Shown: piece by piece, positions 1-48,542 of the stretch
Layout of the letters: each line of letters begins with the position of its first letter
How positions within the stretch are numbered: position 1 is the stretch's first letter
Origin: Raillietiella orientalis
Taxonomy: Eukaryota
Length of the DNA: 64,000 nt
Assembly (NCBI GenBank): GCA_036172245.1
Contig: JAYWIR010000013.1
Location: 2,542,001-2,606,000 of the forward strand
Direction: 5' to 3'
Position numbers and translations under genes: made by a program
The notes under the pieces: model-generated
Told to the model about the DNA's origin: nothing
Seen by the model: the letters and a program-made list of their open reading frames with translations, nothing else
Database searches by the model: none

Positions 1-1
1 A

Positions 2-1165: not shown

Positions 1166-1299
1166 TTTCCCCAAGTCCCACAAGGGGTGGGGTAAGTTTA
1201 TTTTTCTATAAAAATACAAAATTTACATTCGCACCCTCACTCACTCAATACAATTATTTTGCACTTGGGAGTCCTTGGGTTGCACTAGAGTTCTGCTTT

Positions 1300-4817: not shown

Positions 4818-4830
4818 AAAAGGGGAAGTC

Positions 4831-6618: not shown

Positions 6619-7461
6619 CCTGGCAGCTGGTCTTGCTTCACAAGACCACTGCAGGTCTTTTGCCGCGATCTCCTCGCCGCTTTTTTTTTTTGGTTCCGTC
6701 TGGAAAACTTCCCCTCTCCGGGCACACACGAGCACAATGAACTGATTAAGTTGTCAAGCGCACAATACTTCGAGCCGCGGAGCAAGTTCACCGACTCGGC
6801 AGGAGCGGAGCGATCTACCAACTGTCAAGAAGGTGACTCCGTTGCCGCCTTTTGAAGGCGTAGCGAAAGCAACGCCCCCAGAGAACGCAGCGAAAATCCC
6901 GGAGGTTTCCGCAACTACTGTCGCGGAAGCCTCAGAAAATCGCGAAGGCGAATGTAAGGTTGTGGAGAGGAGGGAAGAAAAATCTTCAGAAAAAGCTCCG
7001 CAACCTCCATCCCTGAGCTCTTCCAAAGGAAAAAGCAGTCGCGCGAATACGAAAACACGCGCGGCTTGTGACTCTTCCAAGGAAATAGCCAACGCCTTCA
7101 ACGCGTGCAAGTCCGCTTCTGTGACCGCCGAGAAGACCATTCCGGTGCAATCGGACGGATGCAAGCGCACCTCGATCGTGCGAGCATCAGACTCCGCAAA
7201 GGAGTCCGATAACGCAGCTGAACGACGCGTAACTCGCGCGGGAGCGAGAGCCTGTAGGGCTGAAGCCCTGAGGCGTGACACACTCGCCACGGAACGACGA
7301 GTGCTCACCCCGGAACCCACAGGTTCTGCACCCGGGGAAGAGCACCCCATTACGTGCTGCACAGTTGATGCCGGTGGCGCCCGCGCCCTCCAGCCCGTCG
7401 TGCTGCTTACTACCCGCTCGCCGGGTGAGGCGAGCACCACGGCCTCGCTTTCCCAGCCGTG

Positions 7462-16300: not shown

Positions 16301-18970
16301 TTGGCAACAGATATCTTCTGCATCCAGTACGACGGTCAAAAGCGACAGTCGTCTGAGGACATCGTGGATGCATTTCAAAGGCATTACACGAAACACTTTA
16401 GGCGACAACATCTCTGTCGCTCTAGTCAACAGGCCTTTCTGAGCTACGTCGAGAAGAGGACCGACGATCTACAGCGGAACAGACTGGAGGAGGAATTCTC
16501 CGAAGACGAGGTGAAGACTGCGTTTGGTCAACTACGCAAGGACGTGGCCGCGGGCCCTGACAGCGTACCCATCACTCACTATCAGCGGTACTTGAATGCC
16601 TACCTGCGTTTGTTCCACCAGTTGACCGTCTGCATCCGCGAAGAAGGAAGACTTCCACAGTCCTTCTACGAGAGTCGGATGAGATTGTTGCCAGAAGGAG
16701 GCGACCTCACGCAGGTCGATCAATGGAGGCCAATCTCGATCCTGAACTCCGATGCCAAGTAATTGGCGAAGATCTGGTCCAACCGCTTAGGCAAGGTCAT
16801 GTCGAGGCTCATCTCTCCGGTCCAAACGTGTGCAGTCCCTTCACGTCACATGTCGGACAATGTCAACTGTGCCCAGGCCACCGTCGGACTCAGCCGATAC
16901 GTCGCCGAGAATCTGGCGCTGGTGTTCACTGACATGGAGAAGGGTTTCGACTCCATCGACCATGGGATGCTGCTGAAGGTTCTGGAGAAGCTAGGCCTTC
17001 CGGAACACTTCAGCAACTTCATGAGGGTGGTACTCCAGAACCAGTACTGCCGAATCAAAATCAACGGCCAGGAGACGGCAGCAATCCGGATTGAACGGGG
17101 AGTCCGGCAGGGCGATTCGCTAAGTCCGATGCTGTTCGTCATCTACATGGAGGCGTTGTCGTCCTTTATCGAGAAGAGCGGACGACTGCAAGGCATAACC
17201 ATCGATGGCCAGCGTCTTACCCATCTGGCATACGCTGATGATCTACTCTTTTTTATCAAGGGAGAGAGAAATCAACGAGCGTTTCTGGATGTGGTAGATC
17301 TGATGGATGAAGGCCTCGGTCTAAAGATCAACGCCCAGAAAAGCCAGCTCTTGCCCGTTGGAATCCTCGATCTCTCCACTCTAGCGGGGAGAGGATTCCG
17401 AACGGTGGACAAGGCCAAGTACCTGGGTGTCTACATTGGCGACGTCTCCGCGTCGAAGCTATTGTGGACCGAGATCCTAGGGAAAACGGCCAAGGAAACA
17501 GCCAAATACACCCGAACGGACCTTGGAATGAAGCGAAAGGCCAACATATGGAACGGAGTACTCCTTCCAAAAGTGCTCTTCGGGGCGGCCTTCGCGAGGA
17601 TGAACAAGGGAACCACGAGGGAGTTCGACAAGCTGCAGAGAAAAACACTGTGTGGCCACTATCGCCCAAGAGTCCGACTAAAACCCCTGTGTCGTCCCAG
17701 GGAAGAAGGCGGTTTCGGGATGAAGTCGCTTGCACACTCCATAGAAATCATGGATACGCGACACATCCTCGACATTGCCACTCACTGGGATGACTGGCCG
17801 TATGCGGCGCACAGGGCCTACGCGTTGTTGTGGAACAACTCGAAAGGCCTGATGATTGCGCTGCTAGGCCGAGCAGGTGAATGGAAAAAAATCGACCCAA
17901 CCTGGACGAGGAAGCAACGGCTGGTGCGAAAGCACAAAATCAAGATCGTGCCGAGAAGTAGGGAACTCTGGCAGGACGACTCCATCCTGGTGATCCCTTG
18001 GATGCTTCCTGTCCCGCCGGACACGAGAAGCTGGATCCACCAGCGGTCCAGAGTTACCCTTCAACGAATCCAGGAGTGGAAACGAGGACGCTACCTACAT
18101 CACACTCGTATACTTAGGTATATAGAGATGATGTTAGGAAGGTTTACCCACATGACTCGCGAAGTGTGGTTCAATCACAACGACTTTGCGTGGTCCAGGG
18201 TAACCAAAACAAACCTCCGAAGACTAATTCAAGAAGAACACAGTGATATTAGTGCCCTCCAGGAAGCCGCCGATCGCTACGGGAGTGACCGGATCAACCT
18301 GTTAGCGATTGGCACGACGCTCTGGAGGAGTGACCTTCCGCCGGGCACCCAGGATGACCTCCTGATGTTTTATCATGGAGGAATCCAGAGTGGGTCCCGA
18401 TTGCAGCACTACACCGGAAGAAGGGAAGATCGAGACTGCACAGCATGTGGAGACATCGACACGAGAGTTCACGTCTTGACGTGTCCCACATTGCTGCATG
18501 ACTGGCTGATCCTGAAAAGGATCATCGGACTCACAACCAGGTCCGTAATGGAGATCCTCGCCGAGATGTTTCAGGGGGATGGTAATGTTCCCTGTTACAA
18601 TCCCATGGTGAGGACGACCATCGCCCTCTTCATCACCGCCATACTTGTGCGGTGGTGGAAAATGAGGAAAGCCAGAAGAGCCGCACCACCGATGGAGATC
18701 CTACAAGGGCTCCTGAAGAGGGAAATCGGCATTAGAAACTGTGGGAAAATCCAAGCCTGGACGTACCGATTCATCCTGAAGAGGATAGAAGACGACGCCC
18801 GGGACCAAACAGCAGGAAACCCACCATGAGTGCAAAACTTGTGAGAACCCAAGGACTTCATAGTGGTAAAAAAAGTGCTAATGGTATGGATGAGATTGAA
18901 GTGTGAATGTTTTTATAGAAAAATTTTAGAAAAATAAATTTACCCCACCCCTCGTGGGACTTGGGGAAAA
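13369..18970 (+). mobile_element. Family A LINE, second copy (inverted duplicate of 1166-6771)
   Basis: ORF1 13511-15297 (one frameshift); ORF2 15311-18829 with stops at ~15848, 16238 and 16760; same 3' junction into family B ORF1 as copy 1. Confidence 0.93.
15311..18829 (+). pseudogene. Family A ORF2 (APE+RT)
   Basis: Same motifs as 1300-4817; YADD at ~17230. Confidence 0.93.
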
Positions 18971-20331
18971 CTGCCGAGTCGGCGATGGGGCGACTGCATG
19001 CAGCGTGCTTTTGCTCGTCGCGACGCTGCTTTTACGGCTTTCGTAGCCTTTGCAGAGGGACCTGCGCTGCAGTGGGGCTGTCCGGAACTCAGGAGGGACA
19101 ACGGAACGGGGCAAGAAGTCTTCGCACTGTTGCGATCTTCCTGTTTTCCTACCTTTCCCTCCAGGGTGTTACGGAGATTTCCTGGTTCCTGGCTCCAAAA
19201 GGTGCCTTCGAGTTCGGCAGCGAGAGAGGGCACGGCACGCGTCAAACCCTCGCGCCCCTTTTTAATTGGCTTCCCCGCCGTGACTTTCCCCTTTCGGGGC
19301 GTTGCGGGCGGGGATGCTTTCTTTTTATCCGCGGATCGCTCGTGGTTTTTTTCGAGTTTTTGCGGACGACGTTTTTTATTCGCCGCTGCGGCTTTTCGTG
19401 CAGTGGTCTCTTGAACCCGACGAATTTCCGCTGCGGCTCTTTTTCTTGCAAGTACCGGGCACTTTTCGATTTCGTGCCCGGAATGTTTGCAATAGCGGCA
19501 TCCTGGATAGGGACACTCTTTAATTCGGTGCCCATCCTTGCCGTACTGCTCGCACGCGCGAGTCAGGCCTATGAACCACAGGTGAACGACCGTGCCGTTC
19601 ACCTGTAGCTGCTCAGGCACAACACGCCTGTTCGCGACGGTGATCCGCGTGGAGGCTTGTCCGATGTGGACAGAGGAGAAATTCTTCAAAGGGTTCGGCC
19701 TTCTCCACAGGGCGTGCACGGTGGCGAACTTCGCCAGCACGCTTACAGCATCGCGGTCGAAGATTTCCGGTTCGATGTCGCACAATTGAACGACAAAAGA
19801 GTCGTCCATCGCGGTAGGTAGGACTTCCTTGCCATTGATGGTCAACGGCGTACGGAGAAGGCGCTGCACAAGTGCTGCGTTCTTGCACCGAATTTTCGTA
19901 TATTCCATCCTGCCAGCAGGCATTATGGCAACAAGTTCCTCCTCGCGAACGCCTATCCGGACGAGCTCATCATTGAGCTCACGACCGATTCTCCCGTTAA
20001 GGGGTCCACTGACCTTATAACGGAATGCAGGTATGTATCCTGATGACACATATGCCTGGAACTCCGCATCGCAGGTTCCTGGTGTTTGAGAGGTAACGGC
20101 GGCGTAAGTCCTCACCGGGGGCGAGGAAACCATTACGGAGGATGCGGCCACTTCAAGTGCAGCTGAAGTGCATCCAGTGGCTTGCTCCTCCACACTATCC
20201 TGTGTACTGGCCATGTTGCACTATGCTACTTGGCAGATTGCACAGAAACACACAAGTGCGAGCAAAAACGCAGGCACAAAGTTGCCCGATCGTTGGCGCG
20301 GATAGACTCGGAAACACGTCTGCACTGTACG
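18971..20331 (-). mobile_element. Family B 5' end (5'UTR + ORF1 N-terminal 415 aa, ATG 20214)
   Basis: ORF 18940..20214(-) matches 2..1165; bounded by the TSD agcgcaggagat. Confidence 0.88.
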
Positions 20332-20579: not shown

Positions 20580-22176
20580 CAGACCGAAGAAAATAATAGG
20601 TCTACTGAGTTCAAAAAACAGTTAGGTGGAAAAACAAAGTTGCTCAGATATTGAAAGGCATATATATAAAGGAGGGAAGGGCAATCAATAAGCCAGATCT
20701 AGATAGAACAACTAGGCTGGCATACAACCTTATATTAGTATATAGTAAGGGAAAAGATTTCCGAAAGGACGTGGCAACGCCAAACCAGCGAAGGAACGAA
20801 CAACCAAGAGATAAAATGGAGTTAAAACGTGCATTAAATCTGTTGAGGGCTGTACTATGTATCATTAAATCTACGTCAAGCGTAGCACTTAATGGAACAA
20901 ATGTGTGCAAACTGTTTAATCAAAAAATTATTAGAAGGAAAACCAATTGGAGGATGGGAGACAGAATATCTGATAGCAATCGCAGGAAGACAAAAGACAA
21001 ACGGATACATCGAGATGATGGCACGGAGACACAACAAGGAACAGCACATTAATAACGGTAATATAGATCGACCGAGGATAATAGAGGACAATGTCAAATT
21101 GCATTGAGAACGGCCAGTATTAGCATGGCACCGGCTACAGACCGAAGTTGGATACTATGAGAGGACTTGTGAAGAAGTAGAAACGTATAATATCACACCG
21201 TGGGACAATATCAACAGGGTATATGTGGATAACAGTGCGACATTACACCACTGATGGCGGCAGGGCAAATCTTGGCCGCAGATAAGGAACATCACGACTG
21301 GCGAGCCTTAGGAATAAAGACAGCGCTATATGACATGCAAAATGACAAGACATGGACAGAGCCAAGTGGAAGTGACTATTGCTTCAAGACTGGTGGGAAA
21401 AGAAATACATTCAAGAAACTTAGAGTTCTAAACTCACCATACAGATACGTGGCAGTAGACATCAGCGCACTGTCATCACATATATGGAGCTATGAAGGGC
21501 TACTGGTCAATGCGGGAACACCGGAAGAACCAGAAATGGAACTGTGGCGCTTAACAGACAACAATGTTGTGGTTATTGTAATAAATGACCGGTTAAATCT
21601 AATACAGGAAACATTAGCTTTGTGGATAGTAATACATCTGCGCTATCCATTATACGACACGTATGAACACTTCACGACCTATAGAATCGGCAACAGGACC
21701 CTTAATGACAGAGAGGGTGCGCCAATAAATTAAGAGGAGATATACAGAAGGACAGCAAGTCTAGTAGATATCCCAGCAAGACCAACAGATATAGTTATCT
21801 TGACAAGTGATAAAGTGGCACGAACAAGGAACATTGGCGGGACGGACGTAGCGATAACAATTGGCGAAAGATACTACCGAGAACCGCCAGATATACAAGT
21901 TAATCACGGGACGGAATTAATAACAAATTGCGTAAGAATGACGATGAACCACGGAGGAAAGTTGACACAACTGCTGAATAACTATTTCCTGCCCATAATG
22001 GCAACGGGCATGAACTGGAGGGAGATAGAGCAGATTGTTGGAACGCTCTGTGTAAGATATCTACCCAGGGAAGAAATAGGAGTAAGCATCGACGGAAAAT
22101 ATCAATACAAGACAAAATATGACCAAGCGTGCAAAAATCCGAGAAGGCAACACATGGCGTGGACACCTAAACTGCA
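20580..22176 (+). other. Endogenous viral element: toti-like dsRNA virus capsid-like fragment (frameshifted)
   Basis: Abrupt shift to A-rich composition; near-contiguous ~500 aa frame (..ETLALWIVIHLRYPL..EEIYRRTASLVDIP..GMNWREIEQIVGTLCVRY) recalling arthropod toti-like capsids. Assigned from memory, supported by the toti-like RdRp piece at 32723. Confidence 0.6.
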
Positions 22177-23270
22177 TGCAGCACGACGGAGGACGGTGGC
22201 GACCGTGCCCTCCAGCCGGTCGTGCTGATCGCCGCCCGCTCGCCGGATCAAGCGAGCAAAGCCGCCAACTTCCCAGCAGTAATGCGGGGAATCGCGTCTC
22301 CTCGTCGTCTGTCCGTGACGTGTTGGAACGTGAACGGAATGCAGAACGAGAAGAGCCGATTAGTAGCCAACGCCCTGCGCCCCTTTGACCTCGCGCTCCT
22401 GCAGGAGATTCACGTAATCTCCGACGAGCAGGCAGCCGAAATCGAGGAGCGCGCAGGCGGAACGCTACATTGGCGGTGCGGCGGTGCACACACCTGCGGC
22501 GTCGCGTTCCTCGTAAGAGGAAAAATGGCGGAAGCGGTGCGTAGTGTTCGTTTCGATGACGACGGACGGATAGGCCAGCTTGTCATCAAGTGGTCAGAGT
22601 CCATCGATCTCGTCGTTACGAACGTCTACGCGCCGAGTGGCTCTCGCTACCTCGAAGAAAGAGTAGCTTTCTTTGGTGAGGTGCAGAGCCAGTGGCTCAA
22701 CAACTCCGGTTTCCAAGCGGCACACCTCATCGCGGGGGACTTCAACGTCCGCCTGCTGGCCGACGATTGGAGCCACCCCAGGGAGCGCCCGCTGTCCATC
22801 GAGATGTGCGCGTCGGTGCACGCCGCCAACTTGATGGTCAGCGAACCTGGAATGGAAACATCTCTCGATCACGTTTTCCTAGATGAAAACCTGCATTCGC
22901 GTGTGGGTAGGAGAGAAAGATTGTGGACTGGGCTTTCTGACCACCACAGGTTGGAGTTTGAGCTCCTTCCGCCAGGCAAGGGGCCTCCGTTGCAAAACTG
23001 GAGGATGCAGGCGGATTGGCTTAGCCATCCGGAGGCTGCAGAGCATCTCCGTGAACACCACCGAGGCTTCGCCATTCATGAACTCGCGGACTGGGACGAT
23101 CTCAAAAGATCTGTCCGCGAGTTCTGCTGCCAATTCCCCTTGTACCGGCTTCCATGCGGTTTCGAAGAGGGCGTGGCCAACAGTAGAGACTTTCTGCAGG
23201 CCCGCACGTTTTCGAGACACGCGGATGTCGGGCGTCTCGCAGAGTACAAGGCGAGGGCCGAGCGCCAGGT
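22177..23270 (+). mobile_element. Family B fragment: ORF1 end, TAATG, APE domain
   Basis: TAATG 22280-22284; WNVNG, LQEIH, NVYAP, AGDFN, SLDH, SDH. Confidence 0.9.
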
Positions 23271-24390
23271 TAGCGCGTTTGATGGCCACGCTGCACGCGT
23301 TGATTGTTGGGCGTGGCGCGACCTTTCCCTTGCCCTTCACCACTTTCGCCGGTGCGGGCGCGGTTTTTTTAACAATTTTTACTTTACGGGTGACCAGCTG
23401 CCAGCCTTCCTCGTCGGCAGTCTTTTCCGGGAGCTCCTGTACCGAGTCCCTTTCCTGCTGCGCGACTTTTGTCGGAGCCGACGGCTGATCCCCTTTTGTG
23501 GGGTTTATCACTATTTTTGCCTTCCCTTCCTTCTTTTGCGGAAGTTCCGGCGTTGGAGCGACGTTTATCGGGCACACCACTTTGGTGTGGCCCTTCGCGC
23601 CGCACGTTGGGCAAACTGCGTCCGGGCACCGCTTTTTCAAATGCCCGAACGACTTACAGTTTCCACAAAATTTAGGTTTCCCCACAAACCAAATGTCGAC
23701 GAACTCGTCGCCAATTTGGAGCTTGTGGGGAAGCTGTACGCTTTCTCGAAGCGTCACGCGCGCGCCTACTCGCCCACTAAAAGCACCGTTCACTCCGAAG
23801 GTGTTGGGCTTTCTCCACATCGCGAAAACGCTTGCGTATTTTTCCAGTTCAGCGCGGATGGCGTTCTCATCCATCCGCACTGTTGTCCCTGTTAGGTGGA
23901 CCACAATGGAGTGGTCCACCGTGTGTGGGAGTAAATTCCTGCCCTCAAATTGTACGGGCGTGCAGAGCATCTTGTGGGTAAGAGCTGCATCCTTGCAGAT
24001 GAGCTCCGCCAACTGCCCTCCGCTCCGTATAGAGAGGCAAAGAATTTCATGGTCGGCAATGCCCATCTCTTTGATGGCATTGCCGAACTTTCTCGCCCTT
24101 AACGGGGAATATAAATTGCCTACCTTGTACAGGAGGGCCGGATTGTAGCCCTCCTGGATGTAGGATTGGATTTCGGCGGCGACATCGGGCGTTTCCGCCG
24201 CTGCCACCGCGCTCCAGGCCCTCGCCGTAGTGGCGGGTTCAGAAGAAGTGGTGGGGCGTGATCCCACCTCCTTTGGCTTGGGAGACGCGGTCTTCCCGCC
24301 TCCCTCACCTGAAACTGCGGCGTTCACAGGCATTTCTGCCTGTCAACGGCCGCGAAACACACACGGAACACCAGAAAATAAAAACTCCCT
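23271..24390 (-). mobile_element. Family C 5' fragment (5'UTR + ORF1, ATG 24333)
   Basis: SYIQEGYNPALLYKVGNLYS; CGNCKSFGHLKKRC, CPTCGAKGHTKVVC. Confidence 0.88.
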
Positions 24391-31807: not shown

Positions 31808-31996
31808 TCAAGAAAACTATGCAGTTAAACTATGCAGTTAGGCAGTATATAAAACCACCGATTACATCCGCACCAGTCCTACCTCCAGTGAATTAGCTCA
31901 TATTAGCACCATGCCGTACGCACTATTCTTCAATTTATGCCTCACTGTGTACCTACAGGGAAAAAGAATTCAAGGCCATCAAACAGTGTTGCCGAT

Positions 31997-34900
31997 CCAG
32001 GGTTTTCGCGACATTCCCCACCTGCTGTCCGATCACCCTTTGGTTCGGTTTTCCCACCGCACGGAAAATCCTCGATGGCAAAAGGACACCAGGGCAGCGC
32101 TCACCTGCACGCCCGCCTGGTTTGAGACGCATCCCTGTCACCAGAAGGTCATCGAGGCGATTCCACGGTACACCATCATCCGCAGAGTCGCCGACTGGGA
32201 CAGGTTGAAGCATAGGATCCATCTTTTCTGCAATATGCAGTATTTTAGCAAGCGACTGAGGCAGGAAGCGTACCAGGAGCTCAACATCCAAGACCACTCC
32301 CTCTCAAAGTACTACGATAAGTACGAGAGTCGGTACGTCTTCCAAAATGTGAAAGTGGAGGTCGGCGTGCTGGAAAAGAAGAATCTGGCGACGGAAATCT
32401 GTATCCAGTACGGCGGCCAGAATCGACACACGTCAGAAGACATCGTGGAAGCATTCCATCAGCACTACGAGAAACACTTCCGAAGGCAACACCTGTGTCA
32501 GTCTATGCAACGCACTTTCCTCAGCTACCTCAAGAAAAGGACAAGCGATCTCCAACGTGACAGACTGGAGGATTTCTCCGAAGATGAGGTGAAAACGGCT
32601 TTTGGACAACTGCGGAAGGACGTGGTAGCGGGCCCTGACAGTGTACCCATCACGCACTATCAGCGCTATCTGCACGCCTACCTGTGCTTGTTCCATCAGC
32701 TCACCCTCTGCATCCGCGAAGAGCAGTTGAATTCATAAAGGAAGTAACAGGCACGTATATATCAAAACATTGGAGAGTACTGAGCTATTGGGAAAGGTTA
32801 TATGGCTATCTCGAGCCTAAAAGTTCAAACGAGGTAATTGATGAAGTTGAAGATTGGCTACACACCGAAAAAGATATGGAAGCTGCAATGGGAGAGTGTA
32901 ACTTCCTTAATGGGATGTACAAAGCAACCAAGGAGATAATGATTAAAGAATTTATCCACCCAAACGAATATGTGACCCTTGATGAGTGGACAGCAAAATG
33001 TGGATGGACAAGGAGGAAGGCAGGTGACAATTTGGCACAAACAGTGGACATAGAGGGAAGAAGACATCCGCGAAGAAGGCCGACTACCAAAGTCCTTCAA
33101 CGAGAGTCGGATAAGATTGCTACCAAAAGGAGGCAACCTCACGCAGGTCGCTCAATGGAGGCCAATCTAAATCCTGAACTCCGACTCCAAGTGGTTGGCG
33201 AAGATCTGGTCCAACCGCTTAGGCAAGGTCATGCCGAAGCTCATCTCTCCGGTCCAGACATGTGCGGCGCCCGGACGCCACATGTTGGACAATGTCAAGT
33301 GTGCCCAGGCCACCGTGGGACTCAGCCGGTACGTCGGCGAGGACCTGGTGCTGGTGTTCACGGACATGGAGAAGGGTTTCGACTCCACCGACCATGGGAT
33401 GCTGCTGCAGATTCTGGATATGCTGGGCCTTCCGCAATACTTCAGCAACTTCGTGAGGATGGTACTCCAGAACCAGTATTGCCGAATCAAGATCAACGGC
33501 GAAGATACGGCAGCTATTAGCATAGAACGGGGAGTCCGTCAGGGCGATTCGCTAAGTCCCATGCTATTGGTCATCTACCTGGAGGCGCTGTAGTCGTTCA
33601 TCGAGAAGAGTAGATGCCTCCAAGGCATAAACATCGATGACCAGCGGTTCACCCACCTGACGACGCACCCGCTGACGACCTTCTCTTCTTCATCAAAGGA
33701 GAACGAAATCAGTGTGCGTTCATGGATGTGGTGACGCTCATGGAAGAAGGCCTGGGATTAGGAATCAACGCCCAGAAGAGCCTACTTTTGCCCGTCAGAA
33801 TCCTGGACCTCTCCGCACTCACGGGGAAAGGATTCCGAACGGTGGACACGGCCAAGTACCTGGGAGTCTACATAGGCGACGACTCCGCGTCGAAGTTGCT
33901 GTGTACGGAAATCCTGGGGAGAACGGCCAAGGAAGCAGCAAAATACACTCGACTGGACTTTCGGATGAAGCGAAGGGCCAACCTGTGGAACGCAGTACTC
34001 CTTCCAAAGGTGCTCTTCGGGACGGCCTTTGCCAGGTTGAACAAAGAAAACAACAGAGAAGTGGAAAATCTGCAGAGGAAAACCCTCTGGGGGAAATACC
34101 GTCCCAGGGTTAGACTGAAACCCTTGTGTCGTCCCAGGGAAGAAGGCGGCTTCGGGATGAAGTCGCTTGCACATTCCATGGAAATCATGGATACGCGACA
34201 CATCCTGGGAATCGCTACCCACTGGGATGACTGGCCGTATGCGGCGCACAGGGCCTACGCGTTGTTGTGGAACAGCTCGAAAGGTCTGATGACTGCGCTG
34301 CTAGGCCAAACAAGGGAATGGAGAACCATCGACCCCACCTGGACTAGAAAACAAAGGCTAGTGCGAAAGCACAAGATAAAAATCGTGCCCAAAAGTAGGG
34401 AACTCTGGCAGGAGTCCATCCTGGTGATCCCATGGATGCTTCCGGTCCCCCAAGACACGAGAAGCTGGATCCACCAGCGGTCCAGAGTTACCCTACAACG
34501 CATGCAGGAGTTCAGAAGAGGAGTATACCCACATCACACTCGTATACTTCGGTATATAGAGATGATGGTGGGTAGGTTCACCCATATGACCCGCGAAGTG
34601 TGGATCAACCACGATGACCTCGCGTGGTTCAGGGTGACCAAGAGGAACCTCCGAAGAATGATTAAGGATGAGGACCAAGACACCAGTGCCCTCCAAGAAG
34701 CCGCCGATCGCTACGGCAGTAACCGTTTTAACCTGTTGGGGATTGGCACGACACTCTGGAGGAGTGACCTTCCGCCGAACACTCTGGACGATCTCCTGAT
34801 GTTCTATAATGGAGGAATCCAGACCGGGTCCAGATTCAAGCACTTCACGGGAAAACGGGAAGATGAAGACTGCACGGCATGTGGAGACATCGATACGAGA

Positions 34901-35400
34901 CTACACATCTTGACGTGTCCCACTTCGCTACGCGACTGGCTGATCCTGAAAAGGATCATAGGACTCAACAACAGGTCTGTGATCGAAATCCTCGCCGGAA
35001 TGTTTCAGGGAGATGGTAATGTTCCCTGTTACAATCTCATGGTGAGGACGACCATTGCCCTCTTCATCACCGTGATACTTGTACGGTGGTGGAATATGAG
35101 GAAAGCCAGGAGAACAGGAACCCCTATGGAGATCCTACAAGGACTCATCCGTAAGGAGATCGGTATCAGGAACTATGGACGACTCCAAGCCTGGACGTAC
35201 CGATTCATCCTGAAGAGGATTGAGGACGACTCCCGGGACCAAACATCTGGAAACCAACTCTAAATGCAGAACCCCTTTGAGTATCCCAACGGACCTTCAA
35301 GTGAAGTGAAAGTGGTAATATATTGTGAATGGAAATTGTAGTATGAATGTTTAAAAATTGAAAAATACATTTACCCCACCCCTTGTGGGACTTGAGGAAA
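31997..35400 (+). mobile_element. Family A LINE, 5'-truncated, with ~19-bp TSD
   Basis: atcaaacagtg(t/g)tgccgat at 31978-31996 and 35401-35419; RT and C-terminus to 35263; same 3' hairpin. Confidence 0.93.
32723..33064 (+). other. Endogenous viral element: toti-like RdRp fragment inserted in the LINE RT with a 12-bp TSD
   Basis: catccgcgaaga at 32711-32722 and 33065-33076; stop-free frame HWRVLSYWERLYGY..EVEDWL..TLDEWTAKCGWTRRKAG, resembling the N-terminal motif region of toti-like RdRps. Confidence 0.7.
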
Positions 35401-35519
35401 ATCAAACAGTGGTGCCGATGCAACTGCATCTTTGCCTGCATTGGCAAAGAAAGAGCTCAAACTGGAACTCCGCATCTACAAGGATACATCCAACTAAAAG
35501 AACCCAGGATTCTTTCCAT

Positions 35520-37650: not shown

Positions 37651-37778
37651 CGCCCCGAATGGCGCGGACCTGACGACCAGAAGGACGAGCAGAGTTTTTC
37701 CTTGCCCTGCGGCGCGACTGGCTGACCGAGGCAGTCGTGCGGATTGCCCGTCTGGTTGCAGGCGATTTTAACGTTCGC

Positions 37779-40700
37779 AAGCCTATGTAGCCCAGGGCTA
37801 CAAGCCTACTCTCCGCTATAACGTAAGTGGGGCAGGTAAGGCTGGGGAGGAGTTCGCGGACGAACGCTACCGTGTGGGAGTGCGAGAAGAGGACCTCATA
37901 GCACTCATGCCTGTTCCAGCATTGGGCTATGTGAAGGTCCGATGCAAGCAGGCTGCACTTGTGCAGACGCTCCTCCGCACTCCTTTGTCCATCCGCGGAA
38001 AGAAAGTTTTTCCTTCAGCGATGGACGAGTCTTTTGTCGTTGTTCTCTCGGACATAGAGCCGGAGATCAACGACAAACAGTTGATGGACGCGTTGGCGAA
38101 ATTCGCAACCGTTCATGCGGTGTGGAGGAAGGAGAGTTCTTACAGAAAATTCCCTTCCGTACACACAGGATTTGCTGCGGTTAGGGTAACCGTTCCTAAC
38201 CGCCACACGCTGCCTGCCACGCTACAGGTCAACACGGCACGGTCGTTCACCTGTGGTTCGTTGGCAAAACTCGTGCGTGCGAGCAATACGGCAAAGAAGG
38301 GCATCGGGGTAAAGAATGCCCTTCCCCGAAGTGCCGCTACTGTAAGGAGTCCGGGCACGAAATTAGAAAGTGCCCGGACATAAAAAAAAAGGAGGCTGCT
38401 AGACTCCGGCGTGCCAAAGAGTGCGCAGAGGAGAAAACAGCATCCTCAAAAAAAAAAAAACAGGGAGGCTCGCGAAAGGCCGAAGATAAAAAAGGCCCGA
38501 GCGCGGTCTCAAAGTTGGCTCCCTCAGCATCAAAGCCCCAAAAGGGCAATCGCACGGCAGGGAAGCCATTTAAAAAAGGGCGAGAGGGTTCCGCGCGTAC
38601 CGTTACTGTCCCAGTAGCTGATCGCGGAAACGCTACTCGCGAAATGGGATCAGTAAAACCAGTCGCTCCGTGCGACAAGGCGAAAGGAGGACACGCGAAA
38701 GAAAATTGCGCGGTAACCGTCTCCTTGAGCGCTCTGTCCATTTCGGAGGCTTCAGTCGGAAACCTCACGAAGGCGTCTGCAGGTCCGTCGGAAAAAGCCA
38801 ACGAAAGCAGCGTTGCGTTGCCTGAAAACACGCAGCAACCAGCTGCATCCTCTCCAACAAGACAGTCGCGGAGCAATCTCCCGACTGCCGCGGAGGCCGC
38901 TCTTTCGCCGCCTTTCAAGGGTGCAGGGAAAGCTGCGCCCCAGGCGGTTGGGGAGGAACGTTCGGAGGCGTCCCTCACGAAAGTCGAGGAGCGCCCCGAA
39001 CGAACGGACGGTGGGTGGACGGTTGCGGTGAAAGAAAGAAAAATAAAATCTCCCAAAAATTCTCCGCAACCTAGTTCCAAGAGCCTCTCCAAGGCAAAGA
39101 ACAGTCGCGCGATGCAGAAGACTCGCGCGAAGGTTCCCTCTTTCGCTGCAAAGGCTACCGCCGCGGTCGCGAATGGCGCGAAAGTTGCGATCGCCAGGGA
39201 CGATGTTCCGGTGATTGCGAAAAAGGAAATGTCCGCGGTCCCATTCGCGAGCACCTCCAAACCGAAAGAGCAGGTGAGTCGCGAAGCGCCTGCGCTTCAA
39301 TCAGACTCTCAAACGGAGTCTGAGATCACCGACGCACGTCGGATCACACGCGCGGAAGCCGTAGCGCGACGGGCTAAGGCCCTGAGGCGCGCAGCGCAGG
39401 CCGCGAAGGAGCGAGAGCTCATCCCGGAGCGTCAAACGACGTTACGCGGAAATGAGCACTCGATTTCGTGCAGCACCAAGGAGGACGGTGGCGACCGTGA
39501 TCTCCAGTCAGCAGTGCTGCTCACCGTCCGCTCGCCGGGTAAAGCGGGCAAAATGCCGCCAACTTCCCAGCATTAATGCGGGGAATCGCGTCTTCTCGTC
39601 GTCTGTTCGTTACGTCTTGGAACGTGAACGGACTGCAGAATGACGAGAAGAGGCGCTTAGTAGCGAACGCCCTGCGCCCCTTCGACCTCGTGCTCCTGCA
39701 GGAGATTCACGTAATCTCCGACGAGCAGGCAGCCGAAATCGAGGAGCGCGCAGGCGGAACGCTACTTTGGCGGTGCGGCGGCGCACACACGTGCGGCGTC
39801 GCGTTCCTCGTAAGAGGAAAAATGGCGGAAGCGGTGCGTAGTGTTCGTTTCGATGACGACGGACGGATAGGCCAGCTTGTCATCAAGTGGTCCGAGTCCA
39901 TCGATCTCGTCGTTACGAACGTCTACGCGCCGAGTGGCTCTCGCTACCTCGAAGAAAGAATTGCGCTCTTCGAGGAAGTGAAATGCCACTGGTTCAACAA
40001 CTCCGGATCCCAAGTGGCGCACCTCGTCGCAGGGGACTTCAACGTCCACCTGCTCTCTGACGATTGGAACTGCCCGAGGGAGCGCACGTCGGCCATCGAG
40101 ATGTGCGCCTCAGTACGCGCTTCCAACTTGATGGTCGGCGTACCTGAGATGGAAAGGTCGCCGGATCACATCTTCCATGATAAAAACCTGCACCCTCGTG
40201 TGGGAAGAAGAGGAAGATTGTCGTCCGCTCTCTCTGACCATCACAGGTTGGAGTTCGAGCTCCTTCCGCCAGGCAAGGGGCCTCCGTCAAAGAACTGGAG
40301 GATGCCAGCGGATTGGCTTAGCCATCCGGAGGCGGCGGATCATCTCCGTCAGCACCTCCGGACCTTCGTCATCCGCGAACTCGCGGACTGGGATCATTTA
40401 AAGAGTTCAGTCCTCGAGTTCTCTGAACGGTTTCCCTTGCATCGGCTTCCGCGAGGCTTTGGAGAAAGGGTCGCCAACAGCAGGACTTTCCTGCAGGCGC
40501 GCACCTTTTCGAGACGCGCGGATGTCAGCCGGCTTGCGGAATACAGGGCGAGAGCCGAGCGCCAGGTCTGGCAGTCAGGAGCATCTTCCCTGCTCGATGA
40601 AAAAGGCCTGGAATGCTCGGCACCAGCCGGTATTCGCCGCATCATAAAAAGTTATTACTCCTCGCTATACGCGGAAGCACCAACGGAAATTATCTTTTCG

Positions 40701-43485
40701 GAGATACTGCTTTCCAGGTTGCTGCCGTAGTTAGCGAAGAGGAACGCTCACGTCTCGACGTGTCCTTCACGGAGGAGGAAATTTCCTCCGCAATAGCGAA
40801 GCTCAAGAGACGAAAAGCGCCAGGCGAGGATGGGCTGCCTGCGGAGTTTTATCAGTGCTTCGCGGGGGAGCTCGTTCCCCTGGTGCATCGCCTCTCGTCG
40901 CTGATGAGGGTTTCGGGGGATGTCCCCAACTCCTTCCGCTCAGCGAGGGTGCGTCTCCTTCCGAAAGGTGGAGACGCACGCCATTTAAACAATTGGCGTC
41001 CGGTCACTTTGGTGAACTCGGACGTCAAGTTGCTCTCCAAGATGTGCGTTGCGCGCCTAGGGAGAATCGCGCCGTCCTTGGTGAGCCCGGAGCAGACTTA
41101 CGCTGTTCCCGGGAGATCCATGGACGCGAACCTCCTGTTTGCACGCACCTGGATGCAGCTGCAGGAGCGCGTAGCGCAGCAAAGTCGATCCGTGATGAAT
41201 GCCACTGCTAAAGGCACACGGTATCGACAGAAGCGGCAAGAGGGTACGCCGGGTGCCTTGGCGGTCGCAGTCGACTTCCACAAGGCGTTCGATTGCGTGA
41301 ACCAAGCACTCCTATTGGAGCTCTTGGAACGCCTGGGTCTCCCGGCTCAACTCCTCAAGTACTTGCGCGCATGCTGGCGCCACGCGCTAACTTGCATTTG
41401 TTTTAGCGGCTGCCACGTGTACGGTATTCCCGTGCGCAGGGGCATCAGGCAGGGTGACAGTTTAAGCCCGTTGCTCTTCAGCATGTTCTTTGAGTTGGTG
41501 CTGAGAGCGTACAGGCTGACGCTGGAATACCTGCCTAGCTCTTGCCCGGGAACGCCTGCCGTGGCTGCCTATGCGGATGACCTGCTTCTTCTGCTCCCCA
41601 TGTCCACCCCGGCGTCCAGTGTCCAAGATTTCTTCGACCTGATTCGTCGGGGAGCGGGCGTGAGTGTGAACAGAGAGAAGAGCGTGGTCGTTCCTGTGGG
41701 CGCGTCGTGGGAGGGGCAGTCCGACCGGATCCGCCTGGGGATCCCCACGGCGGCGTACTTCAAGTACTTGGCGTTCCGTTGGCCGACCTCGGCGCTGCCG
41801 AGCGTGGTCGAACTGCCTTCATAAGGCCGAGTTGGCCGCCAGCCCGTTCATTAACGGCAAGTTCACCTTGCTGGAACGGGCGGCTATTTGGAACACCTTC
41901 GTGGCCCCCCTCCTCCGACCCCTCTTTTTTGTCTTGGAGCCCCCCTATGCGGCCAAAGTGCGGGCATAACGCCTGCTAAGGAACGCTCTCTGGGGTCCGG
42001 CGCGATCCAGGATCCGCCTGAAAGACCTCACTGCTCCACGTCGGGATGCTGGGCTTGGCATCCTGACGATGGAGAGAATCGGACTGCAAGTGCAGTTCCG
42101 GATGCTCGCACTTTGTGCCGAGCTATGGACTTCCCCCCTGTGTGCGCCTGCGCGCATCCTCCTGAGGTGTGCAGGCAGTGAAGGATTACTTTCTTTGGTG
42201 CCTGGCTTGCGCCACAGGAAACAGGGATTTGGCTATCCTTTGAGGAAAATCGCCACCCTATTGGAAGCCAGTACGTGGATTACCTGCCGCCCAATGAACT
42301 ATAATGCTTGGAAGCAGGAATCCATTGATTCGTGGGCTGCATTCTTAGGAATGAGCCGTGAAGATCTTCGCCCCTTGCGTCGATTCCACCCTTGGTCACT
42401 CCAAGATGTCATGCAGGACGAGGTGAAGCTTTCCTCCTTGGCCGCCACCCCCCTTGCCGAAGCACTGTCTGCCCTCGAGGCTCGAGATTACAGTAGCCAG
42501 CCGGCAAGGTGGGAGTTCTCCTGCACCATTGCAGGAAGAGCAAAACCAGTTGGCGAATGGACCATGAGCGAGCTTGCGGATGCCGCCACTCCTCTTGCTA
42601 CACCAAAAGGGTTTCTTCGGTGGGGAGAAGCTCTTGGTGTTGCCCCCGAAGAACTTATAGTTCCTCCCTGGTGTTTGGACGGTTCGGTGTTTCCCCTTGC
42701 ATGGAAGCAAGACGTTTTGCTTTTCTTGCACTGGGGATTGCGCTACAACGAGCGGCGCCACCGAGTTCCCGGTGGGGTGGCTTCTACCTACTGTGCCCGG
42801 TGCGGAGCGACGGAGTCGTTCCCACACCTTGTTATGGACTGCGGTGCACTCCAGGAACTGTGGAGGAGGCTAGCAGCAGCTCTCCCGTCAACAGGAGACA
42901 CCGCTCGAGAAGTGCTGCGACGGTTCTTCCAGACACAAGGACTTTCGATGGCTGCGACGATTTCCACTGTTGGTTGCATCCGCGCCATCGTCACGGTCCG
43001 AGACGTGCTGGAGAATACTGGACAGCAATGTTGTGTCACCAGGAAGGCAGCTGACTTCATCAGGTCGGCAGCTGGGTTGCGACACTTATATGAAGACACA
43101 ACGGAGGAGCTAACCGGTATCCATCGCCGGATCAGCAACGGCTTAGAACGACGAAATCGGTGATCCGCCCTCATTTTATTTTTGATTGGTTTTTTTGTTC
43201 TCGCGTCCTTTTCCCTATACGCTCCGCAGTCCTTTTGGTGCTAGAACTTTTGAGTTTCCCGGTGAGTGCGGAGCAATACCAAAGTTCCCTGGCCCACTCC
43301 TCCCATGTAAATTGTTTTTTTTTTTTTTTTTTTTTTGGACTCCCCTCAGTCGTCCGTGTTCTTCCGTTTTCCTGGCCTGCGTGCCAGTGTTGAATCTCCG
43401 CTGCAAGTCTACATAGTCGTGGGCTGGAAATAACTATTTCTAGCTCGTTTATATAAAGAAACGTCCCGGCGCGACCGGGTAAAAA
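37779..43485 (+). mobile_element. Family B LINE, slightly 5'-truncated, inserted into an APE fragment (GDFNVR) with a 14-bp TSD
   Basis: attt(t/c)aacgttcgc at 37765-37778 and 43486-43499; ORF1 to 39576; TAATG; ORF2 39576-43163; 3' hairpin cccggcgcgaccggg + A6. Confidence 0.93.
39576..43163 (+). pseudogene. Family B ORF2 (APE+RT+Cys motif), frameshifted near 40710 and 41775
   Basis: All APE and RT motifs present; CARCGATESFPHLVMDC. Confidence 0.95.
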
Positions 43486-43514
43486 ATTTCAACGTTCGCT
43501 TTCATGGGAGACGG

Positions 43515-43815
43515 ACGTGAATTCGTGTCGCTCCGTTGATCCGCGGTTTGGTTGTGCTTGTGCGTGCCGCTCCTCATTCGTAATGATGAGCATTGAACAA
43601 GACAATATGGAAGTCGTCGGGCCAATGGTTCCTGAACTTACTGCAGCTGAAACGACTGCGGCAACCTGTGCGAGCCCTTCGCCACCGACGAGGAGCTTCG
43701 CGGACGTGGCTGCATCTGCAGCCGTACAAGGATGCCTCCCCGACCAGGCGGAGTTGCAAGCATATGTAGCCTAGGGCTACAAGCCTGCTCTCCGCTATAA
43801 TGTAAGTGGGGTAGG
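43515..43815 (+). mobile_element. Family B 5' fragment (5'UTR + ORF1 start)
   Basis: SPPTRSFADVAA..DQAELQAYVA*GYKPALRY. Confidence 0.8.
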
Positions 43816-44559
43816 CTTAAATTAATTACAAATTAAACCCACTTTAGAAATTAGACACAATAATACAGTTGCTTGGCTAAAATTCTTAAATGCAAGTCAG
43901 GAAAATTAATGCCAGAATCATGTAACCACTCACATCTTTTTACCAATTCAATCCTCGATGGCTTCGTCTAAACATTACGATATGCAGACTGCAACTTTAG
44001 TGCTTGCAATGATACCAACTATTATGAACTTTCCATATGTGCCAAGCTGTGGAATTTCGAACAGAATACTCCAAATCAACACATCAGCTTCCTCATCCCC
44101 TCAGATCCGGACTGGGAATTACCATGCAGAATTATCTATGTTGTCAATCATTCACCACACAGCAGTCTTAAACAAGAATTCCAACCATTAATATAATAAA
44201 CCGCATGCACTTGCGTAGATAAAGATTGTATATATATACAACATTATGAAAGTATATGTTGTTTTGTTTCCACATGGAATAAAAAGGAATATTCAATAGG
44301 TTTGCAAATTCCGAATTCGAAAGGTTTCATGAGAGCATCAAAATGACTCAAATAAAAAAAAAAAAAATTTGACTCCATTAGACTTTCTCATTTTCATTTC
44401 GTGCAAAACATGGATGGTTGGTTCGACAGATGCAGGGCCTAACAGGCAGCTCAAGAATCACCCATCCTTCTGCAAAAGCACCAATTCGCGAATCCTACGA
44501 AAACATGGAGTTATTAGAATCCCTACTGGTACACGGACTCCATGTACTCTTTGCATACG

Positions 44560-44960
44560 GCGCCATAGCCTGGCTTCTCTCCTCTCTTCCCTCCTCGTTC
44601 CTATTTTGGCGTCCTCCTCTGCCTTGCGGAGCGGAGAAAGCCACCTACTAGTAGACTGCTATCTTTCGGACACTGTGGAAACACTTCTTCATTAACCCTC
44701 AAATCGCTTAAACTATGAGAACTCTGGCGGAGCTCCTTTTCACTAGGAGAGGCCACCTACCTCGGCGATCGTAACCGTTGCTACAGGGGCATAATAGAAG
44801 TTTGCCTCCCACCCTTCCCTGTGAATCTCGCATCACAACCTGTTCGCGACCAGTGGTCCCTTCTGGACTGTAATCGAAGAAATAATTCCACAACGAATGA
44901 ACACTGTTTTCTAGTGACTGCTTTTCTAATGACCTTACAATAAATGCCCCGGCGTGACTC
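44560..44960 (+). mobile_element. Highly decayed LINE 3' end
   Basis: ESHLLVDC remnant; aataaatgccccggcgtgac at 44939. Confidence 0.55.
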
Positions 44961-45379
44961 ACTGGACATAAAACTCGTTGTTAGTAGGTATATTTAGTGC
45001 ACACTACTATCAAGCCATCTTCATTTTCTGGTGCATCAATTCTGAATAACCTTCCCTGAAAAATTCCCGTATCGAATGGTACACTCCTAGCCTCAGTGAT
45101 CATACGATAGAAGCTCGAACTCAGAAACAAAAATAAAGCAATACAAGCAATGTACGAAAAAATGCATCACTCAAAGAAAGGTGCACGAATGAGTGGAGGA
45201 GCTTACGAATGACACAATGAGTGCACCAGACGCAGACAGTCCAGACCACCTGACTGTGGCAACAGTAAACCATGTCGAAAAAGTAAATCCTCTCGTTCAA
45301 TGCAACAAACGTACGCTGCCACTACTGAAGCAGTTTACACAGTCTACATATTGCACATAATGCGCACCACCATAGAGAA

Positions 45380-46360
45380 CACTGGTGGAGAACCTATGGC
45401 ACGCGTGCCAGTAGTTCCACGGACGAAAATTTTCGCGGCATGCCATTAAGTAAAAAAAAAAGTTAATCACAAAACTAATTTGAATCCTATCAGTCGACCA
45501 ATTTGCTTAGAATTCCAGGACTTCCCCTTGTGGAATCACACGTGTTTGTCATGCATTTTCGACTGTACTATCGCCAGTGTGCACAAATAAAGTGCGGCAC
45601 TTGTATTATTGTTGTGAATGCGACGACTTTCTGAAGTTTTTAGTGAAGGTGTGTATTATTCTTTGATATTTCTTCTTACCGTACTAAATAACATGGATGT
45701 TCAACATATAAAACAAAAACTATCGGAATCCAGCAATTTTGACTTCCAAACCAGGTGGACTGCAAATTATGGCATGACCAACAAAGATAATACAGCTGTA
45801 TGTGTCGTACGTTCAGAAACAGTTGCATGTAGGACGTCGTAAGTAAATCGGCATTATAAGAGGAAGGAAGCGTAAATCGCTCCTTGAGATAAGACGAACA
45901 GAAAAAATTCATTGCTCAGGCAATTGAAAACAGAAACATTCAATCAAACGCCTTGACAGAGTTTATCGGAAATCGTTCAAATATAACCCCCGCTACTTTT
46001 TTTGTTTCAAATGAAATTGCCAAACATGGAAAACCTTTTAGTGATGGTGACTGTGTTGAGCAAGCATGTTTAAAGTGGGCAAGTGTTTCCAGATTTTGAG
46101 AACAAGGAAAACATCATTCCAAGAATGATATGCCATTGGCCAGAAACTATGAAAGACAGAATATTGGAAATGGCGAAAATACAGCGTATAAGCAAAAAAT
46201 TGATATAAGAATCTTCCGGTTGAATTTCTCTTTGCATTAAAAAAAGTACCAGCGTGGTAAGGATGGCAGCAGAGAACCCTTGGCACAATATGTATTGGCA
46301 TAGCAATTTTCCGCTACCTCACGAATGTTTCTTTGCCGAGTTGATATTTCCCTCTCCGGA
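45380..46360 (+). mobile_element. hAT-superfamily DNA transposon 5' remnant (GTF2IRD2/SCAND3-like transposase N-terminus)
   Basis: TIR-like cactggtggagaacctatggcacgcgtgcca at 45380; FQTRWTANYG..AVCVV..; VSNEIAKHGKPFSDGD; TMKDRILEMA. Confidence 0.75.
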
Positions 46361-46744
46361 GAAGCATTGATAAGACTTTTCATCACAATTGATTCGATTC
46401 TGTAAAATGTATAGTGATATGCAACTCTTGTCTTCATGCAAGATTGTCACCCACAAATATTTCCTTACTAATACATCACTAAACATTAGTAAGCTATGGC
46501 AGCCGTATGGCTGTAGAGTCGGGTAGCCGCTATCTCCAGGTAGCGGCGTAACGACACAACCCGGAAATGCACTCTTTGAACGGTAACATACGGTTCTACA
46601 CTGAGGAAAAGTGGAGTCGTTTAGAAACCGCTCAAGAGTTGCACCACTATGCCTGGGGCACCGAGGCGGTAAAAAACACACAAATGTGAGTGTTCATTTC
46701 GTGCTACTCGCTGTGGTTACCGGTTGCTCCACAATGTAAGTGCA

Positions 46745-47670
46745 GCAATGGGCTTCTGAGAAGCTTCAGGGTGATGAAATTTGATGGTGAAAGCACTTGC
46801 AAGTTAATACATAATAATAATGAGTAAATTTCATTTGAAATGGCAAAATAGTAACTCCAACCAGGCTCAAACACTGTTTAAGTTCCTTCATGGACACAAA
46901 ATAACCATGGAACCAGATATCCTCCAAAGAATAAATCTACTGAAATTTTTGCTTCATTTTGTGCTCCAGCATCAAATTTTTCATTGTTTTCTTATTCCAT
47001 ACTGCTTCAAGAGCTCTCTCTAATGGCACTGTTTACCTGTAAGGCTTGCATTATTCCCTAGAAGAAGGATACCAACAGGGTACTCAATATAATTCGCAGT
47101 TCAGTAGGATAACTAAGCAACAGCTTTCCAACTTATGATTAGAAGCACAATGCTTAGCAAGAAGGAAATATTGGCTTTACTGCATGGAAATAAATGTGCG
47201 CTCAACTTTCAAAGTGCAAAGTATGTCACAAAACACCAAGAAGAAAAGATATTAAATCAGCATAGATACAACACATCATGTTCAAAAGGATGCACTTTAA
47301 GAGCAAAAGACTTTGATTTTGCTTCAAACATTCAACAACTGCAGTCTTTCTACCATCATAATAATCATGAGAATAATTTCAATAATTACCAGCAATCAAT
47401 TGAAAACTTGCAATTTGAAATTTTTTTGTGCAACAATCTTACAGTACACTTGTTTCTTCAATGCATCAAATTCTACTCAAAACTATAGTGCTGCATAAAA
47501 TGCTGTACTGAGATACAATCATGGAAAACTCCGTAGTACTCTCTTGTTTCCAAACTATCCAGAGAGCAGTGGAAACAACAGAATAAGAGCAATGCAATCG
47601 TTAAAGAAATCGTCGAAATCAGAAACCATAGAAGTACTTCAGTGATATCAATTTCAATAAAAAAACGCAT
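46745..47670 (-). pseudogene. Decayed AT-rich ORF divergent from the phenuivirus N gene (ambisense NSs-like or M-segment start)
   Basis: ATG 47670 lies ~30 nt inside a terminus-like inverted repeat; hydrophobic N-terminus; many stops; product not recognised. Confidence 0.4.
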
Positions 47671-47755
47671 TTAATTTTCAAACTGAAGATGTTTAGATAC
47701 ACACACAAAGATCTCTCAGTTTTGAAATATTGCAGAGACTGAATTATTAAGAAAA

Positions 47756-48542
47756 ATGGACAAATTGAACCCGGAGGAAGTAGAAAAATTAGTCAAAGAA
47801 ATTCAATCAACTTTGGTGTTTAATGATGAAATGGTAACTTCCATCAGACAAAATATAAATGATTTTGTTTATGAAAGTTTTGAGCCTAAAAGAATGGCTG
47901 TTATGATATGGCACACGATTCAGGGGTATGCTCTTAAATCTAAAAAAGAGGATATCTTGATAATGATTATGTTAGCTTTGGAAAGAGGGAATAATTTAGA
48001 CAGCATGAGAGAAAAGATTAGTGAGCTGGTCTTGATGCTCTTTTTAAAACATACAAGTTCGTGTCTAACCCCGGTAAGAGCAAGGATGCAACAATGCTTT
48101 CAAGAGTGTCATTGTTCTTTCCTTGGTTGACTTGTGAGATGTGTTCTCACATATTATCACATACAGTTTCTGCCTATCTCTTAGACAACTTAATATCTGC
48201 CATTTACCCTAGGCAAATGATGACAAGTGCATTTGCAAATAGGATACCCATAGAAACTGACAATGCAGAAAAGAGCACTGGAATTGATAAGATAGATCTG
48301 CTTATCTTTTACAACAGCTTGAAGTTACCCAGACAGTTTCAAAGATATTCCCAAATACAACCAACACAGATCTAATCTCTAAAATTCGGGTTTATACAGA
48401 TTCAGGTGAAGCAAATAATTACATTCCCAATGCTGACAGAGTACCCTATATGATTAAGTGAGGTATTTTTGACGAAAATTGGACTCTGTCTACTGATGTG
48501 GTCAAAGCAGCATCAGCTTCAGAAAACGAACTTGCATTTTGA
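47756..48542 (+). pseudogene. Endogenous viral element: Phenuiviridae (phlebo/tenuivirus-like) nucleocapsid N, full length but frameshifted
   Basis: DFVYESFEPKRM, DILIMIMLALERGNN, TMLSRVSLFFPWLT, YPRQMMTSAFA, GIFDENW..VVKAA match phlebovirus N motifs; genome-terminal ACACAAAG at 47703-47710. Confidence 0.85.

Follow-up and report, generated by a model that had tools for sequence, protein, structure and literature searches.

A toti-like virus RdRp fragment flanked by a 12-bp target-site duplication within a LINE copy

The route by which non-retroviral RNA viruses enter non-mammalian animal-type genomes is still debated. For mammals, the accessible text of PMC2987831 treats LINE-1-mediated integration of mononegavirus mRNAs (EBLN and filovirus-like elements), with a target-site duplication (TSD) and poly-A, as established. 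Endogenous viral elements (EVEs) of insects and crustaceans are stated, in the available portions of two sources, to show no TSDs, and other routes are favoured for them (PMC2987831, PMC4231630); in the isopod, no obvious TSD was seen at any of 54 EVEs, and the involvement of retrotransposons was judged unlikely (excerpted text of PMC4231630). The locus described here, which lies in a 64-kb window (the whole stretch of DNA that was analysed), raises this question again. It contains a 342-bp stretch related to the polymerases of toti-like viruses inside a LINE copy, and we ask what this stretch is, where it begins and ends, and by which route it may have arrived.

The borders of the insert can be drawn to the base. 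A 12-mer, CATCCGCGAAGA, is present on the + strand both at 32711-32722 and at 33065-33076 and flanks the insert, which occupies 32723-33064 (+). The local order is ...ctctg CATCCGCGAAGA gcagttgaattc ... gagggaagaaga CATCCGCGAAGA aggccgac..., and the repeat search and the MAFFT alignment agree on both copies, that on the left being LINE-derived. The copies match at 12 of 12 positions and their length falls inside the ~7-20 bp span of LINE-type TSDs. With up to one mismatch allowed, CATCCGCGAAGA occurs four times in the 64-kb window, every time exactly, compared with 0.35 expected, and none of 100 shuffled sequences attained four. The remaining two occurrences, at 16633-16644 (+) and 3485-3496 (-), mark the homologous position in two LINE paralogs, where the 12-mer is present as a single copy each time. 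In a self-BLASTN of the window the alignment of the host LINE splits precisely at 32722 and 33065, giving two parts that share 12 nt on the paralog (31995-32722 with 15911-16644, and 33065-35401 with 16633-18970). When the host copy is aligned with both paralogs using MAFFT, a single gap of 354 columns appears, made up of the 342 of the insert and the 12 of the duplication. LINE sequence alignable to the paralogs adjoins the insert on either side, base-exact, and neither filler bases nor deletions occur at the left or right junction. The 12-bp repeat is a true target-site duplication, observed far above chance.

A sequence-only reading of this DNA had already described a perfect 12-bp TSD and had claimed that removing the insert and one copy restores the LINE RT. 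Both statements hold: the paralogs are uninterrupted at the site, where they encode C-I-R-E-E-G-R-L-P, and the alignment to empty family A copies which that reading had suggested places the same gap against each of them. These empty copies (copy 2 at 16633-16644 and copy 1, its inverted segmental duplicate, at 3485-3496) belong to an inverted segmental duplication that is 6.8 kb long, with 90.5% identity. They therefore represent one LINE insertion that was copied, and provide one independent empty site rather than two. Two smaller features of the junctions can be mentioned here. A GAAGA motif terminates the repeat as well as the insert. A 10-nt match between the right junction and 32435-32444, within the LINE, was treated as chance.

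The identity of the insert was addressed with HMMER (phmmer), using the insert protein P0001 as query and a library of 1.84 billion representative proteins. The search returned 50 matches at E<=1e-3, ten of them at E<=1e-10, with P0002 (791 aa) at the top (E 2.3e-18). Pfam RdRP_4 (PF02123) was found above its curated cut-off in 17 of the 20 matches scanned; the other three include one protein with a sub-threshold RdRP_1 only and two DUF4806 repeat proteins. The six top matches correspond to ORFs without a name, 783-803 aa long, whose contigs measure 2.6-8.0 kb; four of these contigs lie in the range 6.7-8.0 kb, a typical toti-like genome size. The relatives of P0002 that bear names are "hypothetical protein 2 [Hubei toti-like virus 20]" and "Totiviridae sp.", and the cluster of another match, P0015, contains the Hermetia illucens toti-like virus 1 RdRp. 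By BLASTP, insert residues 1-113 align with residues 100-218 of P0002 at 41% identity (E 2e-27), and the insert shares 32% identity with protein 2 of Hubei toti-like virus 20 (E 5e-17). Viral homology spans the insert from its first codon to its last, on the + strand. On these grounds of homology the insert is confirmed as derived from a toti-like RdRp gene, and it is very probably a genuine endogenous viral element.

Other searches added no relatives. A word-index protein search gave 29 candidates, none at E<=0.01; tblastn of the insert against phage records gave no match; a scan of IMG/VR produced 18 pattern matches, none of which was confirmed; a PDB sequence search found no match below E 0.38; and the top score in the ESM Atlas, 0.75, was uninformative. 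Within the window, tblastn with 58 fetched relatives yielded 59 HSPs, of which 56 fall on the insert, one overlaps it and two weak ones (E 0.002 and 0.004) lie in LINE ORFs. No second toti-like piece was thus found by tblastn in the 64 kb. For three relatives the tblastn alignment runs up to 72 nt to the left of the insert; this was rejected as over-extension, the stretch concerned being alignable to the LINE paralogs. Two non-viral identities were also discarded. A DNA transposon or SINE is out, since the insert lacks terminal inverted repeats, is unique in the window and shows viral homology, and a component of the LINE family itself is out, since the insert is missing from the paralogs.

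The sequence-only reading had called the insert an internal, sense and stop-free fragment, and this description stands. Its reading frame, from 32723, stays open over all 342 nt (114 codons) and differs from the ORF2 frame of the LINE. In the relatives the RdRP_4 match begins at about residue 290-390, and the counterpart of the insert (100-218) lies upstream of the catalytic palm. The catalytic palm motifs are not within the insert, which is a gene fragment and not a working polymerase. A Pfam scan of P0001 itself gave no RdRP match even at E<=10, and its two sub-threshold matches (E 0.069 and 0.42) are attributed to chance. Aligned with 19 relatives, the insert retains 9 of the 11 invariant columns and 16 of the 19 near-invariant ones, and its identity to these relatives is 28-43%, compared with 25-82% among the relatives themselves; six residues present in all 19 are missing from it. 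The frame of the insert, continued into the right TSD and the LINE, gives a basic stretch, and a basic stretch is found at this place in 19/19 relatives too. The GC content of the insert, 40.6%, is below the 53.7% of the window and the 50.7% and 54.4% of the kilobases on its two sides, and both blastn and tblastn find it as a single copy there. Its 3' end is GAGGGAAGAAGA, of which all but maybe the last three bases align to viral residues. An A-run at this end is absent and a search of the insert for a LINE-like 3' hairpin was negative, as had been remarked from the sequence alone. The insert encodes no catalytic portion of a polymerase and no protein function is evident; any present-day role, for instance in supplying antiviral small RNA, is a matter for speculation.

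The element that received the insert is a family A non-LTR retrotransposon of the APE endonuclease and RT type, 5'-truncated, at 31997-35400 (+). It is bordered by a 19-nt TSD of its own, with a 5' copy at 31978-31996 and a 3' copy at 35401-35419 (both +), which are identical at 18 of 19 positions. The family A 3' terminus, at 35374-35400 (+), combines a conserved hairpin motif with 3-4 A downstream of it; family A copies end in GAGGAAAA or GGGGAAA(A), long poly(A) being absent, and the hairpin motif has three matches in the window against none expected. The host copy carries the RT domain and is 78-84% identical to the two paralogs, and its ORF2 is broken not only by the insert but also by a frame change and an in-frame stop, at least one of each; ORF2 is in fact broken in every family A copy of the window. 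The TSD of the full-length paralog, copy 1, measures 15-16 nt. A search for relatives of the LINE RT gave 67 matches, none above 34% identity, the best being 28-33% identical and including L1-like vertebrate and plant entries.

ORFs for APE endonuclease and RT occur in at least five elements of the window, nearly all on the + strand. The TSDs of a second family, B, could not be delimited; a repeat of ~60 nt (37775-37835 and 43755-43815) was considered as such and set aside, and looks like the terminal part of an element. No Rfam family and no tRNA turned up when the window was scanned for them. A second EVE of the window, a phlebovirus-like nucleocapsid element, lies at 47756-48372, and no TSD was found around it. 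Nearly all LINEs of the window and both EVEs are on the + strand.

What process could have placed a viral gene fragment between two copies of a 12-bp LINE sequence? On balance, we consider that the LINE endonuclease and RT probably acted on viral RNA, by endonuclease-dependent TPRT, and that this is the best reading of what is a single event. The source would be 342 nt from the interior of the plus strand of a toti-like dsRNA virus or from a viral transcript, and a host retroelement polymerase would have reverse transcribed them. The cDNA would have entered a LINE copy that was 5'-truncated and already in place, through two nicks with a 12-bp stagger, in a form of TPRT resembling processed-pseudogene formation minus the poly(A) tail. 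Nicks and cDNA would both have been made by the LINE endonuclease/RT; priming may have been internal or on broken RNA, and short hidden microhomologies may have assisted both junctions. A few bases of the TSD could be common to the viral RNA and represent such a hidden microhomology, given the basic stretch that 19/19 relatives also have at this place. The purine-run end of the insert, GAGGGAAGAAGA, resembles the LINE terminus GAGGAAAA, and these two features may explain initiation.

Staggered nicks of 7-20 nt are a signature of LINE endonucleases, and LINEs that form TSDs, of 15-16 and 19 nt, are present locally. Other observations count against TPRT by family A in particular. The insert bears neither poly(A) nor the family A hairpin, and in general neither a 3' poly(A) nor a LINE 3' recognition element, a criterion for TPRT, is seen on it. 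The hairpin and 3-4 A of family A suggest that its RT may recognise its own 3' end; if so, a viral RNA devoid of the hairpin would be a poor template, and another family or another mechanism may have acted. The nick contexts of the insert and of two independent family A insertions show no clear common motif, in a sample too small for a consensus. The sequence-only reading had likened the length of the duplication to TSDs of 12-19 bp in the neighbouring LINEs. The TSD is real, but at 12 nt it is somewhat shorter than the two verified for family A (19 nt, and 15-16 nt). The same reading had proposed trans-mobilisation of viral RNA by these elements; the viral origin, the type of fragment and the TSD all stand, while the action of the family A endonuclease/RT is what we infer from them, and the absence of the hairpin tells somewhat against it.

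Two explanations, both of them unlikely, would produce an identical footprint and compete with TPRT on viral RNA. According to the first, an RT copying LINE RNA jumped to viral RNA, copied 342 nt of it and then returned to the LINE RNA, 12 nt downstream of its point of departure. The 12-nt repeat would then be a LINE stretch copied a second time and no target-site duplication, and the event would date from the retrotransposition that created the 5'-truncated copy. Such copy-choice has been put forward to explain a nodavirus-like EVE within an LTR element (available sections of PMC5177903) and also U6/L1 chimeras (available sections of PMC4476161). The GAAGA at the ends of both repeat and insert is a short homology able to guide jumps, and the six-residue gap relative to 19/19 relatives could be a further, intramolecular slip of the RT. 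Timing bears on this explanation as well: as a rough estimate, the absence of mismatches in the 12-nt TSD and of stops in 114 codons fits the age implied by the one difference in 19 between the LINE TSD copies and by the two changed invariant columns. On these figures the ages of insert and LINE copy are indistinguishable, and the insert may therefore date from LINE integration. The explanation nonetheless requires two switches, with a return no more than 12 nt from the point of departure; the length of the repeat would fall near the range of LINE TSDs only by chance; and at the left junction no homology is visible between the first bases of the insert and the LINE bases that follow the repeat.

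The second, which we hold to be improbable to the same degree, is capture by end joining: double-stranded viral cDNA, of the episomal sort that retroelement RT produces when arthropod cells are infected, would have been ligated into a staggered break, with fill-in of the 12-nt overhangs. The fragment starts and stops within the viral gene and carries neither a tail nor a LINE part, as would suit such a donor. Studies of insect and crustacean EVEs see no LINE hallmarks and invoke non-homologous recombination as one alternative route, as far as the accessible text of both extends (PMC2987831, PMC4231630). Random breakage, however, does not usually give 12-nt overhangs, the stagger lies in the range left by LINE endonucleases, and the junctions are free of the filler bases and deletions noted as absent above.

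It is distinctly improbable that the donor was an older toti-like EVE or a related host gene elsewhere, a fragment of whose transcript was retro-copied into the LINE. Stretches related to the insert do occur in proteins of insect host genomes (Scirpophaga, Arctia, and Anopheles, the protein of the last having DUF4806 repeats), the presence of a second EVE in the window indicates that the locus or the genome accumulates them, and 2 of 11 invariant columns are altered. Against this, the best matches are full-length polymerases (41% identity), four of the top six on the 6.7-8.0 kb contigs, compared with 28-33% for the host-genome entries, and the 64-kb window holds no further toti-like piece. An assembly chimera, or a contaminating viral read joined to LINE sequence, has next to no probability, though on indirect grounds: a chimeric join would not make a perfect 12-nt target duplication with exact restoration of the LINE on removal, and a DNA library should contain no dsRNA-virus RNA.

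Returning to TPRT on viral RNA, a more specific and rather unlikely version of it can be formulated from the termini: a hairpin-tailed LINE nearly devoid of poly(A) might be able to start TPRT on the tail-less cytoplasmic RNA of a dsRNA virus, with an internal purine-rich stretch serving as a mimic of the LINE 3' terminus.

How the locus compares with known systems can be considered in four cases. Toti-like EVEs (ToEVEs) are common in arthropods, examples being those of planthoppers (PMC10636211) and of the isopod (PMC4231630), according to the available text of each. The present insert is like them a toti-like RdRp fragment fixed in host DNA, in a repeat-rich region, and its relatives, as in the ToEVE context, are invertebrate toti-like viruses together with EVE-like proteins of insect genomes. 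It differs in that its borders are base-exact through paralogous LINE empty sites, whereas the accessible portions of PMC10636211 and PMC4231630 give no TSDs. With the mammalian EBLN and filovirus-like elements it shares the combination of a non-retroviral RNA virus sequence and a TSD, which is there read as LINE retroposition (PMC2987831, in the text available). Those elements are whole viral mRNAs with a 3' poly-A; the insert is an internal, tail-less stretch of 342 nt from a non-polyadenylated dsRNA virus.

Capture by copy-choice is described for LCMV and IAP in mouse cells and for a nodavirus-like element in an LTR retrotransposon of Bursaphelenchus, in the accessible part of PMC5177903. 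There, as here, viral sequence lies within a retroelement whose own RT is presumed to have done the copying. Those are LTR elements, with recombination in the course of reverse transcription, for which the same portion of that source (PMC5177903) reports no duplication of the flanking element, whereas the present insert lies in a non-LTR LINE with a 12-nt duplication. Finally, L1 mobilises the tail-less U6 and other snRNAs by template choice or switching (PMC4476161, from its available sections). The resulting pseudogenes resemble the insert in being tail-less RNA, copied by a LINE and flanked by TSDs, insofar as LINE copying of the insert is what we infer (PMC4476161, same sections). U6 inserts are, in the text of that source at hand, usually full-length and often fused to a 3' part of L1, whereas the present insert has no LINE part and both of its ends are internal to the source RNA.

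A TSD-flanked toti-like EVE was not described in the full-text literature searched, to the extent that its text was available. Toti-like EVEs themselves are known; new here is an EVE that combines a LINE-type TSD and the lack of a tail with an origin from an internal fragment of a dsRNA-virus gene. It is a single event, and the weight it can bear depends on further cases in the same genome. The paralogous empty sites fix both junctions and thereby provide a testable footprint of the kind expected if a tail-less transcript of a dsRNA virus is retroposed with the help of an endonuclease. If LINEs of the hairpin-tailed type can indeed start TPRT at internal purine-rich sites of such RNAs, LINE machinery would constitute a general route for short viral fragments into invertebrate-type genomes, beside LTR copy-choice and end joining, and this route would cover fragments that enter same-strand arrays of transposable elements and EVEs resembling unidirectional piRNA clusters.

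The insert, a 342-bp fragment of a toti-like RNA polymerase gene carried within a LINE, lacks six residues which are found in all 19 of the toti-like relatives aligned with it. The gap is located at window positions 32741-32746, between codons 10 and 11, and may already have existed in the donor virus, or may reflect a slip by the reverse transcriptase or a later in-frame deletion.

The insert also matches an insect host protein, Anopheles moucheti XP_052894207.1 (P0011), in which Pfam identifies eight DUF4806 stretches. The phmmer match (E 1.3e-11) includes four stretches, and two of the DUF4806 repeats are also matched by BLASTP (E 4e-8 and 1e-6). The repeats align with insert residues 32-111, which correspond to the N-terminal region of toti-like polymerases. 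DUF4806 may be a viral domain which has been domesticated or is shared with viruses.

A second non-retroviral endogenous viral element (EVE) was observed in the window, a frameshifted phlebovirus-like nucleocapsid gene on the + strand (47756-48372, with the adjoining upstream sequence at 47700-47755). Two of its ORFs match Pfam Tenui_N (E 6.9e-6 and 1e-6), covering positions 2-76 and 84-154 of the 224 in the profile, and phmmer against PDB retrieves phlebovirus nucleoproteins (best E 2.4e-7). About 50 nt 5′ to the ATG at 47756 is cacacacaaagatc, which is similar to the conserved phlebovirus segment terminus. The start of the copy may thus coincide with the terminus of the S-segment antigenome or of the N mRNA. 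Neither a target-site duplication nor an A-tail was found for this element. It is located within an AT-rich block (43800-51000; 33-45% GC compared with ~55% elsewhere in the window) in which a scan of 75 ORFs of at least 50 aa revealed no other Pfam match. This block may belong to the host background or to another element, or it may consist of viral sequence in a more advanced state of decay.

The window also includes an inverted segmental duplication of ~6.8 kb (1-6762 and 13369-20134; 90.5% identity), whose cargo is a full-length LINE of family A (the non-LTR retrotransposon family to which the copy with the toti-like insert also belongs), together with the LINE 3′ flank; its breakpoint adjoins the LINE 5′ end. 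A direct repeat of ~60 nt, including a perfect stem (GTAGCC..GGCTAC), is found at the 3′ end of another LINE, located at ~38200-43800, and a second time shortly before the 5′ end of this LINE (43755-43815 and 37775-37835, respectively). Either a neighbouring copy of the same family, arranged in tandem, ends in this sequence, or the element itself has terminal repeats.

Excluding the inverted duplicate, the Pfam-supported LINE ORFs (8623-9645, 13394-18829, 22171-23895, 33171-33593 and 39543-41824) and both EVEs all lie on the + strand, a strand bias across the window. This arrangement of LINEs and EVEs is reminiscent of the unidirectional piRNA clusters which are reported to hold EVEs in mosquitoes (PMC7161354).
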